A stretch of DNA of 62,669 nucleotides, the filler included, from an uncultured bacterium (GTDB taxonomy: Bacteria > Hinthialibacterota > Hinthialibacteria > Hinthialibacterales > Hinthialibacteraceae): the NCBI GenBank assembly GCA_964449065.1. It is 16 parts of 16 records of this genome, joined end to end, with 100 filler letters (N's around TTAATTAATTAA, not from the genome) between each part and the next. Parts side by side here need not be neighbours in the genome. Positions count along the whole stretch, not along the records: positions 20,026 to 23,883 come from CAYVAZ010000424.1; 15 more parts are not named here. The stretch is one strand, 5' to 3'. How positions within the stretch are numbered: the stretch's first letter is position 1; each line of letters opens with the position of its first letter. Below the pieces are notes generated by a model, which was given only the letters and a program-made list of their open reading frames with translations, was not told the origin of the DNA and did no database searches. The position numbers and the translations under genes were made by a program. Of this stretch, positions 19,926 to 25,589 are shown piece after piece.

Positions 19926-20112
19926 NNNNNNNNNNNNNNNNNNNNNNNNNNNNNNNNNNNNNNNNNNNNTTAATTAATTAANNNNNNNNNNNNNNNNNNN
20001 NNNNNNNNNNNNNNNNNNNNNNNNNGCGTCTTGAACACCGCCATGATATGCCGCCTACTTCAGGCCATCACCAACTTTCGCGCATAACTCCAAGACTGGC
20101 CATTGTGGCACG

Positions 20113-20350
20113 TCAGGGCCAAATCCATATCTGCTGGTTCAGGTGGTGTCGTTGGACTTGCGCGCGGCTTTGAGCCAGGCGATAGCTCTCGCTATTCATC
20201 TTCTTGGTGAGGAGGACCGTGGCCGAAGGCCGCGTACGCCGACGAACGACTTGGCGGGTCAATCGGTCGAGCAGTGCACCGATGAGACGCTCGGTGCCGA
20301 AAGTTTCGGTTCATTCGTCGAATGACAGGTTGGTGGTGAGAACAGGCGGC
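20113..20350 (-). pseudogene. IS21-family IstB ATPase C-terminal remnant
   Basis: Hand translation LTTNLSFDE*TETFGTERLIGALLDRLTRQV...MNSESYRLAQSR; conserved Trp replaced by TGA. Confidence 0.75.
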
Positions 20351-20665
20351 GTCCTGTGGCGCGTCTGGATCGAACTCTCTATCCTCGACCAAATCGAAAC
20401 GGGATCGTCAGAAGACACGAAATGATCCTGCAGCGTCTCGCCCAAGCCCGTGGGACGCAAAAACGTGCGTGGAAGGCTGGGCGTCATTATTTGATTGCAG
20501 GCAGTGCAGTTGCCTATACGGCTCCCGAGCCAAAATGCCAATCGGCGCTGGTTTCTGACCGCAAATGTCTGGACCGTCGTCACTCTTATAATGAGGGGTC
20601 ACCGTCTGAATAGAGACTGGCTCACATAAAAACACTCGGCCCTCTCCCAGCCAAGAATGCCCTGA

Positions 20666-21228
20666 TTACCGGCGCATCTTATGTCTCAAAATTGCGCGCG
20701 GGCTGCCATAGCTGCCCAGGCTGAGACGGGACTGTTCTTTGATGTGGGCCAGCGTGACCAGATCAGAGCGCTGTCTGCGACTGGCGGGCCGACTGCGGAA
20801 CGCCCGCAAGCCGCGTGGGCTGACACCAACGACACTGCACAATCGCTTGATTGAAAAGCTGGCTATGTGTTCCTCAATGAACCTAAACCTCATGGCTTTT
20901 GACCCGCGAAGAACTGCGTTGCCTTTTTTAGGATGTCCCTCTCCTCCTTGAGAATGCGGTTCTCGCGTCGAAGCCGGTCATTCTCTTGGGCGAGGCTCAA
21001 ATCTTCTTTCGACACTACATCCGTGTCTCGGTGCGCGGTGATCCATTTGTTAAGCGTTGACATGCCGACACCCAGATCATTCGCCACCTGTTTACGCGTA
21101 AGCCCGCTTGTCAGCGCAATCCGCACCGCATCTTGGCGGAATTCGTCCGTCCGTTTCAGTCCCATAATTTGTCTCCTTTGTTGCAGTAAATGCTATCAAA
21201 GGAGCGGCATCAAACTGTGACAGGTCCA
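20666..21228 (-). mobile_element. Truncated IS3-family element (IRL, orfA 20890-21165, truncated orfB)
   Basis: TGGACCTGTCACAGTTTGATGCC left end at 21228; OrfA HTH + ENDRLRRENRILKEERDILKKA; A6G slippery site 20923-20929; OrfB breaks after YGSPR. Confidence 0.9.
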
Positions 21229-21876
21229 AAGTGTGACGTGCACCATCAAACATGGATTAGCTCACTTCTGCTTTGTCTATGCTCAAAAACCCCTGATACG
21301 CCCGTTCAACATGTTTCACCACCGCCAGAAGTTCGGACTTTTTCCACCCTTAGGCTCCCAATACGTTGATCTGCGCAAAAGTTCAAACATTGTCGAGGAG
21401 TAAAATTGAAAAGCGTGGAAGACAACGGGGCGCACCCATCGGTGGCCGCTGTGATTCCGCCATTATTAATTGTTTCTCCCATGCGCCCGCCAAAATGCGA
21501 GATGCTATGCACGAAATCGTTTTAGCGACAACGCGGTGATTGCGTTTCAGTGGCCTTTGCCCCTCGCATCCATCGTTCATTTCGAAGACGTCATCCAAGA
21601 GCGGAAAATCGTGCATTCGAATCTTCTGGTCAGGCATCACGCAAATCGACCAGAGATTCGAAGCTTCATCAATCACTTTTCTCTTCGCCCCCCCCCTGCG
21701 CCCATTTCTGCCAACCTCAGCCGTACGAAATCCGGCTATTCATCGCCGAAGACGGACATCGGCCGTTTGTCACCGAATGACTGGCCACATGCGCGTAGAC
21801 TAGGTGGACACATGCCGTGATACCCAATGACAGATTTGGAGAAAATTTTCGACTTAAATTCGGGACCAATCGGGGC

Positions 21877-22374
21877 TCAGGTCACTGTGTTCTCGAGCAC
21901 TTCCGCCAATGCCCGCAGAGCATAATCTGCCGTACTCATTTGCATCTTTCTCCGACTTAGACCCTCCCCACGAAACATGTCACAGAATTCGGACTTTTCG
22001 GAGATAGCCGAGTAAACTGCGACGTAAGCGTGTGGCACCGAAACTGATTGCTCAGGGTAGGGTTCAGCATATCCGGTTGTGGCGACACCAAAGTCGGCTC
22101 CAAACAATTCGCAAACCCCACGCGCCATCTGGACCGCAATCTCGGCTGAAACCGCATCGCAACTTGCCGCCGCAATGGGATCGACATTAAGGAGATCAGC
22201 TTTGATAGGTATCGTATATGCTGTTATTCCACCTTTGAAGTATTTGGAGGCACCAGAACGGGCCCCAATCAGAGCTTGCAGATTCCCTGTGGTGAGGCTT
22301 TCGGCGAATGCGAGTGTCTGACCGCTTTCGCTCAAAATGCGATGAACGATGTCAGCGCCACTTTTCTTAAACAT
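21877..22374 (-). CDS. pncC: CinA-C/PncC-family NMN deamidase
   Basis: AESLTTG (catalytic Ser), GASKYFKGG, conserved Lys in IKADLL, AVS-MARG, TTGYAEP; ATG overlaps the upstream stop (ATGTTTAA). Confidence 0.85.
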   Translation of the reverse strand: MFKKSGADIVHRILSESGQTLAFAESLTTGNLQALIGARSGASKYFKGGITAYTIPIKADLLNVDPIAAASCDAVSAEIAVQMARGVCELFGADFGVATTGYAEPYPEQSVSVPHAYVAVYSAISEKSEFCDMFRGEGLSRRKMQMSTADYALRALAEVLENTVT

Positions 22375-23320
22375 AGGTTCTGCCCCAGGTGGTCGGCCAA
22401 AGGTCGGCTCCGTACTGGCCAACGTGGTAGGAAATCTCGCTCGTCTTGTTAAATTTATGGACGTTTGTGTGCTCCGAAAGCTGTCCAATATTTTGTAATG
22501 CGTAGGGGAGGTCTTCGGTGTCCCGCACAAACAGGACAGCGGGTAGCCCTAAGGCTAGTGCAAAGCCCGCCTCCACAAACGAACTCGTTGCAAGCTTTTC
22601 AGGTAAAATCATCAAGAAGCGATCCGAACTTGCGAGCGCGCGCATGTCCCGTTTCGCGCCAACTAGGCTGTCGTCAAATTCGCGGATGTCTCCGAATGAC
22701 CTTCCTGCAAAGTAGAAACGACTGAGTGAGGGATTTTTCTCCAGCATCTCGATTATTATGTTGAGAGATTTTCGGAATCCGCGGTACCGCAATCCTCTCA
22801 GCGATGACATTGGCGCTGAGAGAAAGACGTCAAATCTATTCGCATCCTGGCGAGCTCCCTCCAACGTTCGTTGTACCTTTTCCACCAGCTCATCGTCGTT
22901 TGCGGGCATCGAGGGCGCTACTCCGAGGACTTCCCTCATGGTGCGCACCAACTGCGTTCCAAAGTCTGGGTTGGCTACGCCGAGCCCCTGAAATGCGGAG
23001 AGTGGGCTAGGTAGGTCTGCGACGGCCAGACCAGAATGACATACCGGCAAGAGGCGAACGTTGCGTCCCCAAGCGCCACCTGCCTCAAATATGACCCAAG
23101 TTTTGCGGACGGAAAGAGGGCTGCATAAGACAACCACAAGGCTTGCATCGCGAATTGCGGACTCAACCGCCTGAAGCCACTGTGCACCTGCGGTAATATC
23201 AGATTTGCTGACAAAAGTTTCTACTTCACCTGAAAAGTGCGAATCGATCCAGCCCTTCAGCAATAGCGCCAATGGTGCTTCTTGACTGGTATGACTGATA
23301 AAGACTTTCCTAACGTCCAT
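22367..23320 (-). CDS. TIR domain fused to a nucleoside 2-deoxyribosyltransferase (Ndt)-like domain
   Basis: N-terminus VFISH...ITAGAQW...CSPLS..WVIFEAGGAW (TIR, catalytic Glu); C-terminus DVFLSAPM...DMRALASSD...SSFVEAGFALALGLP (Ndt/RCL fold); GGAGG RBS before ATG 23320. Confidence 0.8.
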   Translation of the reverse strand: MDVRKVFISHTSQEAPLALLLKGWIDSHFSGEVETFVSKSDITAGAQWLQAVESAIRDASLVVVLCSPLSVRKTWVIFEAGGAWGRNVRLLPVCHSGLAVADLPSPLSAFQGLGVANPDFGTQLVRTMREVLGVAPSMPANDDELVEKVQRTLEGARQDANRFDVFLSAPMSSLRGLRYRGFRKSLNIIIEMLEKNPSLSRFYFAGRSFGDIREFDDSLVGAKRDMRALASSDRFLMILPEKLATSSFVEAGFALALGLPAVLFVRDTEDLPYALQNIGQLSEHTNVHKFNKTSEISYHVGQYGADLWPTTWGRTYV

Positions 23321-23519
23321 TGTCCCTCCGAAAGTTTGTAACACAGCCATCGCCGAAATCACGGGTGAATCTCGGAGCCCCCGCAGTGTGACCGTCTTCG
23401 GTAAGATTAGATCTGTGAGAATTGCGCTGGCAAGCGATTTTATCCGGATTGTCTGCAACCTTTGCTTGGGTCAACCAAAAAAATTGACCCCCGGCCGTTC
23501 TAACTTGGGTGGCACGAAA

Positions 23520-23650
23520 AACCCGGGTCACGGCCAGCGAATACGGCGCTGACCTGATCGTGATCGGCTCGCGCGGGCAGAACATGATCCGCGGGCTGTT
23601 TCTCGGCTCGGTCGCGCGTGAGGTGATCCGGCTCAGCACGCTGCCAGCAA
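23520..23650 (+). pseudogene. Universal stress protein C-terminal remnant
   Basis: ADLIVIGSRG...LFLGSVAREVIR..LP without the N-terminal part. Confidence 0.65.
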
Positions 23651-23983
23651 GGAAGCCGCTAAACAATGGCCTGCTGAAAGCAGGACCCATGATTTGCGCC
23701 ATGGCTGTGTACACATCCAATTACGTCTTGTGCCTGCGCCACACCTTCAGAGCGAAGTGCTATTTCGCGCCAGGACCAAGGATTTTGTTTGACCGCAACC
23801 ATCAGAGCAAAGATGCCCGACTTCGTTCAAAGCTCGATGCTCTCGGCCAGCGCGAGCGCATCCTCGACCTCCACCCCGAGATANNNNNNNNNNNNNNNNN
23901 NNNNNNNNNNNNNNNNNNNNNNNNNNNTTAATTAATTAANNNNNNNNNNNNNNNNNNNNNNNNNNNNNNNNNNNNNNNNNNNN

Positions 23984-24278: not shown

Positions 24279-25589
24279 CTATTGGCTAGCAACGGCATGC
24301 ATAAACGGTTTTAAGGTGGTATCGAAATACGGCATTTCACAGGATTCGGCTTGGTCGTCTCCGGTTTCCATATAGGCGGCGTGGCGGCAGCCGCTGGCGC
24401 AGATCGGCATGTAATGGCACGCTTTGCATTTGGCGTTCAAATCAAGATTACGGTACGATTTTTCCGGGTCGATAATCCCGTCGCGTACATGGCCGACCTT
24501 GAAGTCATAACGGCCGACAAACCCGGGGCACTTAAAGATGTTCCCCAGCGGATCCACGACATAGCTGTGGTACATCAATGCCTGGCAGGGGCCTAATGCC
24601 ATCCGGTCTTTTACGTTAAAGCCTTTTTCCATCGCGTATTCGGTCAGAGTGACAATATCCCGGCACTCGGTTTCCGACATCTTGCAAACGGTGCACTGTT
24701 GGGAAATAGCCGAAGCGATCTTATCGCCGATGGTGGAGAGAATCGGCTTGGCGTAAAAGGTTTCTAATTTTTCATGCAGTCCCAAATCATGCAGGTAATC
24801 AATGAGCGTGGTTACGCTATGGTAATTCTCTTGGTTAAAGTTGGTGCCGACTGTCACTTTCAGATGATCGGCGGCATAGAGAATATTGGTGATGATCTTA
24901 TCGAAGGTCCCCTTGCCGCCCAGCGTCGGCCGCTTGGCATCGTGCTCATCACCATAGCCGTCCAGCGTAATCTTCACGGATTCGATGCCGTGCTCTTTTA
25001 ACGCGTGCACCGTTTCTTGATCCATCAACACCCCGTTGGATATCATCCGCAGGGTTTTTCTTAGTTGATACCGTTCTGCCAGCAGGCAGATTTCATCGCA
25101 AAGGTGATACAGTTCTTTTTTGTTGAGTAAGGGTTCGCCACCGTAAAAGGTGATACGCAGTTCCTTGGATTGATCTTCTTGAATGAGTCCTTCCACCCAA
25201 CTAATAATTGAATTGGACGTGTCGCGTTTCAAAAAGATGCGGTTTTTTACGCCATTTTCAACACAGTATGGGCAGGCTAAATTACAGGAATAGGTTGTAA
25301 GAATCGTAAGATCAATTATGTCTTTATTTGTTCTTACATTTTTGTACCACTGATACCCTTTGTCGTCATCGTTTTCATTTTCTTCAACCAATACCCCCAT
25401 TTCCTGCAATTGATCCATGGCTTCCTGAAGCTCTTCATTGCTTTCTGATAATCCAGCATCCGAATCTAATAATTCAATAAAATTTGATTCCAATTCAACA
25501 ATAGATCGATTAATTGTGTTATAGATTAGTACGGTGTCATTGCCGTTATCTGATGGAATTGAATATTTGGAAAGACGTAATTTTTTCAT
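24279..25589 (-). CDS. Radical SAM/SPASM peptide maturase with N-terminal RRE-like region
   Basis: CNLACPYC, FYGGEPLL, ITLDG; SPASM CQA..VDPLGNIFKC...CKAC..MPICASGC...C. Confidence 0.9.
   Translation of the reverse strand: MKKLRLSKYSIPSDNGNDTVLIYNTINRSIVELESNFIELLDSDAGLSESNEELQEAMDQLQEMGVLVEENENDDDKGYQWYKNVRTNKDIIDLTILTTYSCNLACPYCVENGVKNRIFLKRDTSNSIISWVEGLIQEDQSKELRITFYGGEPLLNKKELYHLCDEICLLAERYQLRKTLRMISNGVLMDQETVHALKEHGIESVKITLDGYGDEHDAKRPTLGGKGTFDKIITNILYAADHLKVTVGTNFNQENYHSVTTLIDYLHDLGLHEKLETFYAKPILSTIGDKIASAISQQCTVCKMSETECRDIVTLTEYAMEKGFNVKDRMALGPCQALMYHSYVVDPLGNIFKCPGFVGRYDFKVGHVRDGIIDPEKSYRNLDLNAKCKACHYMPICASGCRHAAYMETGDDQAESCEMPYFDTTLKPFMHAVASQ

Follow-up and report, generated by a model that had tools for sequence, protein, structure and literature searches.

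We analysed a stretch of 62,669 nucleotides (the window), a series of short contigs from the assembly GCA_964449065.1 of an uncultured bacterium placed in the Hinthialibacteraceae. One of them, C424 (CAYVAZ010000424.1; window positions 20026–23883, 3858 bp), carries two overlapping genes. The first encodes a TIR domain fused to an N-glycosidase-like domain of the NDT/DrHyd fold, and the second encodes a divergent PncC, a family of nicotinamide mononucleotide (NMN) deamidases. Judged by its domains and mixed neighbourhoods, the pair is likely an undescribed anti-phage cassette. Its genes and domains are as follows.

22367..23320, minus strand: gene 1, TIR-NDT fusion (P0001), intact open reading frame (ORF) of 317 aa
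22916..23314, minus strand: TIR domain of gene 1, about aa 3–135, with the catalytic-position Glu79 at 23084–23086
22400..22843, minus strand: MilB-like N-glycosidase (NDT/DrHyd) domain of gene 1 (domain 2), about aa 160–307, with Phe166, Asp225 and the nucleophile-position Glu250 at 22571–22573
22367..22386, minus strand: coupling signal, GGGG at 22383–22386, an 8-nt spacer, and the cinA ATG within the final codons of gene 1
21877..22374, minus strand: gene 2, single-domain PncC/CinA (P0002), intact ORF of 165 aa, divergent TTGYAEP subfamily, with Ser26 and Lys58

The two genes share an 8-bp overlap (ATGTTTAA, 22367–22374), and the GGGG run is likely the ribosome-binding site for cinA. A longer start of gene 1, TTG at 23458, was dropped because close relatives begin near 23320. 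Contigs of two public sequencing runs cross the gene junction with 0 differences; they verify the assembly only, because these runs may be the source sample. No RNA data set is found among the sequencing runs listed as holding the sequence. Both genes are intact, while the insertion sequence (IS) and universal stress protein (USP) sequence around them is decayed. The original prediction had described two intact overlapping genes, the motifs WVIFEAG and SSFVEAG, a PncC keeping its Ser and Lys, and a contig otherwise made of IS3, IS21 and USP debris. All of this was recovered: the ORFs lie on the minus strand at the coordinates above, the motifs hold E79 and E250, and remnants or fragments of all three flanking elements were identified.

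Pfam TIR_2 matches gene 1 at aa 6–99 (E 9.6e-15; 55.6 bits, above the cut-off of 28), and the PADLOC profile TIR-TM (PDLC03016) matches aa 5–115 alone (E 3.7e-9, and up to 2.7e-57 in distant relatives). From family knowledge, gene 1 is predicted to have TIR NADase activity. In domain 2, the Pfam match to Nuc_deoxyrib_tr (aa 222–279; E 4.7e-4) scores 20.7 bits, below the cut-off of 28.8, and PF05014 is matched by 35 of 47 members of the domain 2 family at E≤0.05. A 47-sequence profile of domain 2 searched against the PDB matches, with the VFLxxP motif included, the cytidine monophosphate (CMP) N-glycosidase 4JEN (E 9e-7), followed by MilB 4JEM (7.6e-4); deoxyribosyltransferases score 0.09 or weaker. 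A feature search of the ESM Atlas returns NDT-domain clusters at 0.90–0.91, with PF05014 on 56% and 45% of their members. AlphaFold2 models full-length gene 1 as two alpha/beta domains (predicted local distance difference test (pLDDT) 83.0, predicted template modelling score (pTM) 0.79) and domain 2 alone with a pLDDT of 87.1 and a pTM of 0.85; the C-terminal tail is unstructured in both. Foldseek with the full-length model was mostly uninformative, its top ranks being two-domain alpha/beta proteins at an rmsd (root-mean-square deviation) above 13 Å, and the best local matches were SPARTA TIR chains (about 160 columns, rmsd 5–6.5 Å). The predicted calls of TIR, NDT fold and CinA thus stood, but the Ndt domain proved closest to MilB-type ribonucleotide-monophosphate glycosidases. 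The proposed likeness to retron-type Ndt effectors was not supported: no retron NDT effector, that of Ec86 included, is among the PDB sequence matches of domain 2.

A word-indexed search found eight close relatives of gene 1, at 49–73% identity. Residue conservation was counted in 41 full-length TIR-NDT proteins, comprising nine of the close clade and 32 picked from 150 listed profile matches (50% representatives). We relied on this set, found with a hidden Markov model, and set aside the pattern-found loci, because the search patterns already contained F166, P170 and E250. E79 in the TIR and E250 in domain 2 are invariant (41/41). Position 166 is Phe in 39 proteins and Tyr in two, and D225 is kept in 9/9 close and 21/32 distant proteins. 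In MilB, E103 is the nucleophile, D78 contacts the ribose, F17 switches between ribo and deoxy substrates, R23 and E62 contact the cytosine base, and S97 and G99 contact the phosphate (PMC4081090). Counted on HMMER alignments, E103 maps to E250, D78 to D225 and F17 to F166, and gene 1 shares the F-L-x-x-P motif. On the other hand, R23 maps to S172, E62 to about F209, S97 to A244 and G99 to S246. Gene 1 has P-M-S in place of the P-F-(R/K) motif of MilB proper, is fused to a TIR, lies outside an antibiotic cluster, and matches MilB at low identity, on the profile level. Domain 2 is likely a ribo-mononucleotide N-glycosidase acting on a base other than cytosine, since R23 and E62 are replaced. 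Judging solely by the partner gene, that base would be nicotinamide or nicotinate. In the tree, the branch of the close-clade NDT domain is long, at 1.47 changes per column (Shimodaira–Hasegawa-like approximate likelihood ratio test (SH-aLRT) 100).

Gene 2 matches Pfam CinA (PF02464; E 1.1e-33) and TIGR00199 (98.5 bits against 68.9) above their cut-offs, and the PncC equivalog PRK03661 below its own (55 bits against 212). All ten listed PncC active-site positions, taken with the conserved blocks from PMC3855486, are kept. Gene 2 resembles PncC of the E. coli YgaD type in its fold and in Ser26, Lys58, Gly41, Ser43, Tyr53, Thr100, Gly101 and Arg141, and family knowledge suggests that it acts as an NMN deamidase. 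Its motifs differ from the canonical blocks YxNxxK, GAVS, TG[IV]AGP and KPVGT, with YTIPIK for the first, DAVS for the second and TTGYAEP for the third; its subfamily is marked by AESLT, YTIxxK, [ND]AVS, TTGYAEP and the lack of the P-VII Gly. In a 46-row tree, a 99/99 branch splits 27 TTGYAEP-type sequences from 19 canonical ones, and no separate clade is resolved for the seven operon-type copies inside the 27. In the two genomes tested (G001 and G002), the operon copy scores 111 and 112 bits, and each genome also has a housekeeping PncC, at 182 and 169.5 bits, so that the gene 2-type PncC is an extra copy in both. The proposed comparison of this CinA with housekeeping PncC came out as a separate grouping. 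Operon-type PncC was found in none of 400 other genomes of the class of G001.

Pattern scans gave 22 loci in 185,579 species genomes and 43 loci in JGI metagenomes. Two loci in the species genomes match the cassette closely, L001 in a Hyphomonadaceae metagenome-assembled genome (MAG) and L002 in a Rhizobiaceae MAG, both alphaproteobacterial; they are the sole close-clade members among the scanned loci. Both have the same 8-bp overlap and the G-rich run upstream as in the window. Further pairs are reconstructed from protein clusters. P0021 and P0024, the best CinA homologues, have longest contigs equal in length to those of P0003 (15,746) and P0006 (10,669). The called N-terminal extensions of P0021 and P0024 can be encoded over the last 15 codons of P0003 and P0006 without a single mismatch, where 300 shuffles each gave at best 5 and 6. 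P0022 also fits a close-clade tail, with 1–2 mismatches. The trees of both genes pair the window with P0003/P0021, and L001 with P0006/P0024. The recurrence of TIR-Ndt + CinA pairs, which the original prediction had proposed to look for, was therefore found in L001 and L002 and reconstructed on two further contigs.

In total, the pair is seen or reconstructed in five of the nine close-clade clusters (window, L001 and L002 in DNA) and unseen in the other four; this amounts to about four lineages, because L001 and P0006 are near kin. All nine close-clade proteins, and none of the 32 distant ones, end in a WGxxY[V/A/E] tail, whose codons spell the likely ribosome site and the cinA ATG. The pair and its overlap persist at a divergence of 49–55% identity in gene 1 and 48–54% in gene 2. 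One further copy (L020:10001–10778) has TIR and NDT matches in different frames and appears frameshifted.

The genomic neighbourhoods were scanned on selected ORFs without a background rate, and ORF calling was crude in GC-rich loci. Within 6 kb of the L001 pair lie an HNH nuclease and two other TIR proteins, one of them TIR-TPR and the other with several domains. The last, divergently transcribed (L001:8338–9663, minus strand; 441 aa), has a TIR, then two more alpha/beta domains that look TIR-like, with an EAG motif at the end, and it weakly matches PADLOC Aga_TIR-PNTD1-PNTD2. A comparison by hhalign (probability 3%) does not clearly place it in the NDT family of gene 1. Stand-alone TIR-NDT genes of distant relatives lie by Wadjet jetA/jetC (L010), bSEFIR (L013), SIR2 (L026), nSTAND1-WD40 (L007) and CHAT-TPR-S (L012), and the neighbours of the remaining scanned distant loci look metabolic or unnamed. 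The MilB-like module is also fused to a Ser/Thr kinase (L014, L036), a PNP phosphorylase (L049), a metallophosphoesterase (L055), likely membrane segments and, beside a SLOG (cluster4) gene, a helix-turn-helix (HTH; L021, L062). Additional fusions of the module occur at L064 and in P0015, P0016, P0055, P0126 and P0154. These neighbours and varied NDT fusions are suggestive of conflict systems, and we are fairly confident that the cassette has a conflict role of some kind. For the defence-island setting, which the original prediction had proposed to check, the picture is mixed: L001 has defence-type neighbours, the signal at L002 is weak, and the pair in the window has IS debris around it.

We compared the cassette with known systems. 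In PADLOC, matches to gene 1 are limited to the TIR, gene 2 has none, and no system matches the pair, in line with the original prediction, which knew of no described defence system with a PncC subunit; NCBIfam defence-system models score far below cut-off on the genes. Partner genes of Thoeris, CBASS, Pycsar, retrons and short Argonautes are absent, and their system profiles remain under cut-off; C424 is short, yet it contains both flanks of the pair. The TIR NADase effectors (SPARTA TIR-APAZ, Pycsar/CBASS TIR, TIR retron) and Thoeris ThsB share with gene 1 the TIR fold, the catalytic-position Glu and weak domain-level profile matches. However, the three loci seen (window, L001, L002) have no Argonaute, cyclase, reverse transcriptase or ThsA, and we know of no PncC in SPARTA, Pycsar/CBASS, TIR retrons or Thoeris. 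The profiles TIR-TM, which is presumably part of a 2TM-1TM-TIR system, and Aga_TIR-PNTD1-PNTD2 match the TIR only; the C-terminal part of gene 1 is a glycosidase and the partner genes are absent. The NDT-like effector of retron Ec86 (Eco1) depletes nicotinamide adenine dinucleotide (NAD+), and the available parts of its description contain no deamidase (PMC13276650); the fold and the defence setting are alike, but the cassette has no reverse transcriptase or multicopy single-stranded DNA. DrHyd domains in conflict systems act as NADases, cyclases or sensors, in an account whose available parts do not mention PncC (PMC9503650). DUF4062 proteins are TIR-like NADases, again with no PncC in the parts available (10.64898/2026.05.01.722283). 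By its domains the cassette appears to work like a TIR-based NAD-targeting defence, yet it falls outside the named systems tested. In full-text searches, whose scope leaves aside subscription papers and comparative-genomics supplements, none of the listed papers describes a TIR or NDT system that includes PncC; an earlier bioinformatic mention of this architecture may exist.

The TTGYAEP subfamily also occurs on large mobile elements. It is encoded on five viral contigs of 290–536 kb, four of them distinct (L091–L095), and four records of Vibrio plasmids, each about 0.9 Mb (including L088–L089), carry it as well. On four of the five mobile elements tested it is accompanied by the domain of an NAD-dependent ligase, by an NAD synthase and by a HIGH-type nucleotidyltransferase. 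This co-occurrence was counted without a control set, and of the four viral records two are provirus-classed. One of the five encodes a protein of the nicotinate phosphoribosyltransferase (NAPRTase) family. The co-occurrence of ligase and NAD synthase fits the recycling of ligase-made NMN, and hence a real deamidase activity. A recycling route from NMN through nicotinic acid mononucleotide (NaMN) to NAD on jumbo phages and megaplasmids is thus possible, on the gene content. On the Vibrio plasmid, the gene that lies upstream of variant cinA was considered as a TIR-NDT and rejected, as it encodes a CoiA-like nuclease-domain protein. The only other match in the phylum sample (L097; 1 of 400 other genomes) is not TIR-linked. 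For TIR-NDT relatives, none of 55 pattern matches in viral contigs was confirmed, and the plasmid search gave four partial matches to the TIR only.

We propose, tentatively and at less than an even chance, that the cassette both destroys NAD+ and drains its mononucleotide precursors. Upon phage infection, which would be the trigger of this presumably mobile cassette, the TIR domain of gene 1 would cut NAD+. Meanwhile, PncC would make NaMN from NMN, and NaMN or NMN would be cleaved by the fused glycosidase, giving the free base and ribose-5-phosphate. NAD+ rebuilding via the mononucleotide, as by phage NARP2, would thereby be closed. The Phe at the position of MilB F17 suggests, by family knowledge, a ribo-mononucleotide as the substrate of the glycosidase. 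NARP2 rebuilds NAD+ through NMN, and PncC is a host route from NMN to NAD+ (10.1101/2024.02.11.579819). In one of the options of the original prediction, PncC would block phage NAD reconstitution by removing NMN. It would not do so alone, because NaMN re-enters NAD synthesis; PncC would aid defence only if NaMN is destroyed or if NMN is a signal.

Several observations weigh against draining. In domain 2, the phosphate-binding Ser97/Gly99 of MilB are replaced. Missing from gene 2 are the Asn in YxNxxK and the P-VII Gly described as ‘strictly conserved’, and its block P-VI has a Tyr as in the NMN-inactive YdeJ, although gene 2 keeps the phosphate-binding residues that YdeJ lost. A glycosidase taking NMN directly would make PncC redundant, and one taking neither NMN nor NaMN would leave PncC aiding NAD+ recovery. 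No sensor domain or trigger is evident in the cassette. Core genes surround L002 (glyA, nrdR and ribD, from translations), with one PIN-domain gene near, and a defence-type neighbour was found at 5 of the 14 scanned distant TIR-NDT loci, a count without an enrichment background. The gene content of the mobile elements bears the reservations given with it. CinA is present at two of 26 in-frame TIR-NDT loci (L001 and L002). Among the distant TIR-NDT loci, 18 have 600 bp or more of downstream sequence, and all of them lack CinA, as do all 39 other NDT loci. Because none of those 18 distant loci carries CinA, PncC is an accessory that a single clade of the wider TIR-NDT family gained; it is not a general subunit of a TIR-Ndt system, as had been assumed.

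In an unlikely alternative, domain 2 would be a sensor that binds and slowly hydrolyses NMN and switches the TIR on. The coupled PncC would hold NMN below the threshold, and a phage that raises NMN (by an NAD ligase or Nampt) or stops host expression would trigger NAD+ destruction. The NDT module has interchangeable fusion partners (kinase, HTH, PNP, metallophosphoesterase, membrane segments), and such interchangeable partners are the pattern of nucleotide-sensor domains; TIR-like catalytic domains, however, have equally promiscuous fusions. Tight translational coupling suits a toxin and its brake. Inactive TIR-DrHyd-SLOG domains serve as sensors (PMC9503650). SARM1, which senses NMN via its ARM domain, provides an analogy only: an NMN deamidase changes the outcome of its TIR activity, and there is no homology outside the TIR. 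A bacterial NMN deamidase protects axons by holding NMN low (PMC8295901). Against a sensor, the invariant nucleophile Glu of domain 2 points rather to an enzyme, PncC is missing from most TIR-NDT loci, and hosts already possess a housekeeping PncC. The specific form of this idea, a bacterial immune switch that reads phage-made NMN with a glycosidase-fold sensor, fires a TIR and is held by a dedicated NMN deamidase, is rather unlikely. If true, NAD reconstitution would meet a counter-counter-defence, one that parallels SARM1 control in bacteria, and its deamidase would come from the subfamily with which jumbo phages would recycle NAD.

We consider it improbable that PncC serves self-protection or recovery, with TIR-NDT leaking a NAD+-consuming or signal-making activity and PncC recycling NMN via NadD and NadE. 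PncC does give a route from NMN to NAD+ (PMC3855486; 10.1101/2024.02.11.579819), and its subfamily travels with NadE and NadD-like genes on four of the five mobile elements. But TIR NADases release nicotinamide and ADP-ribose, not NMN (10.1101/2024.02.11.579819), and the housekeeping PncC is already there.

Metabolic salvage of pyridine nucleotides, from NAD+ to NMN, NaMN and nicotinate with no defence role, seems quite improbable. Both partner enzymes come from nucleotide-salvage families and L002 lies among core genes. However, the distribution is very sporadic (two close matches in 185,579 genomes; operon-type PncC in none of the 400 class genomes and none of 30 relatives of the window genome), and at the three loci seen the pair has no NAD-salvage gene on its flanks. 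Salvage seldom involves a catalytic TIR, which counts against this explanation.

Very improbable, in our view, is a different nucleotide substrate (a TIR-made ADP-ribose derivative, NAD+ or another carboxamide nucleotide), by which the pair would process a signal in a conflict system. Both pockets differ from the characterised models, and the close-clade NDT lies on its long branch. The NADase or cyclase roles of conflict DrHyd domains (PMC9503650) and the NAD+ depletion by the Ec86 NDT (PMC13276650) would fit as well. This is opposed by the ten active-site positions kept in PncC and by the co-occurrence of its subfamily with an NMN-producing ligase and NadE on mobile elements. Hitch-hiking, in which cinA was captured once behind the TIR-NDT gene and travels along without a shared function, is the least probable: both trees are compatible with a single origin in one clade and other relatives lack cinA, but pair and overlap are retained despite the divergence of both genes, which stay intact where the IS and USP sequence around them has decayed.

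Defences that deplete NAD+ are common, and phages answer by rebuilding NAD+. As a 1.4-kb two-gene cassette joining a TIR to two predicted mononucleotide enzymes, the pair is a small candidate answer to this rebuilding. The pair would give PncC its first role in immunity, as far as the searched literature shows. Two uncharacterised families come into view with the cassette: a MilB-like module, mobile and fused to many effectors, and a jumbo-phage PncC subfamily. Its rarity (about nine 90% clusters) limits its ecological weight.

The rest of C424 consists of decayed sequence, in which we identified three features.

20094..20339, minus strand: IS21 istB remnant (flank) with in-frame stops
20696..21229, minus strand: IS3-family remnant (flank), HTH_Tnp_1, with nucleotide matches to plasmid records
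23530..23646, plus strand: USP C-terminal fragment (flank), Pfam Usp 1.4e-9, profile positions 98–136 of 141

The GC content of C424 is 0.536 against 0.474 for the bin, and by tetranucleotide distance it stands at rank 20 among 122 short contigs. The bin has several further short contigs that deviate more strongly (GC 0.60–0.68). By blastn, C424 has no match elsewhere in the genome. Its IS3 is 82–85% identical in nucleotides to 15 listed of 253 plasmid records, and all 15 belong to Rhodobacterales genera. No close match to gene 2 was found in 30 relatives of the window genome (best E 6e-21 or weaker), where the best matches sit in open frames mostly of 426–496 aa, the size expected for a two-domain CinA. 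The cassette or contig is likely alphaproteobacterial in origin, either mis-binned or recently imported, because of its GC content, tetranucleotides, and IS3 and IS21 remnants of alphaproteobacterial type, and the lack of a close PncC in those relatives. The contig end (23826–23883) shows high read depth and a weak likeness to mobile sequence, with one match under a tyrosine recombinase gene. On the next, unrelated contig, an ORF of 436 aa (24279–25589, minus strand) looks radical-SAM/SPASM-like by its cysteine motifs, as judged by eye.

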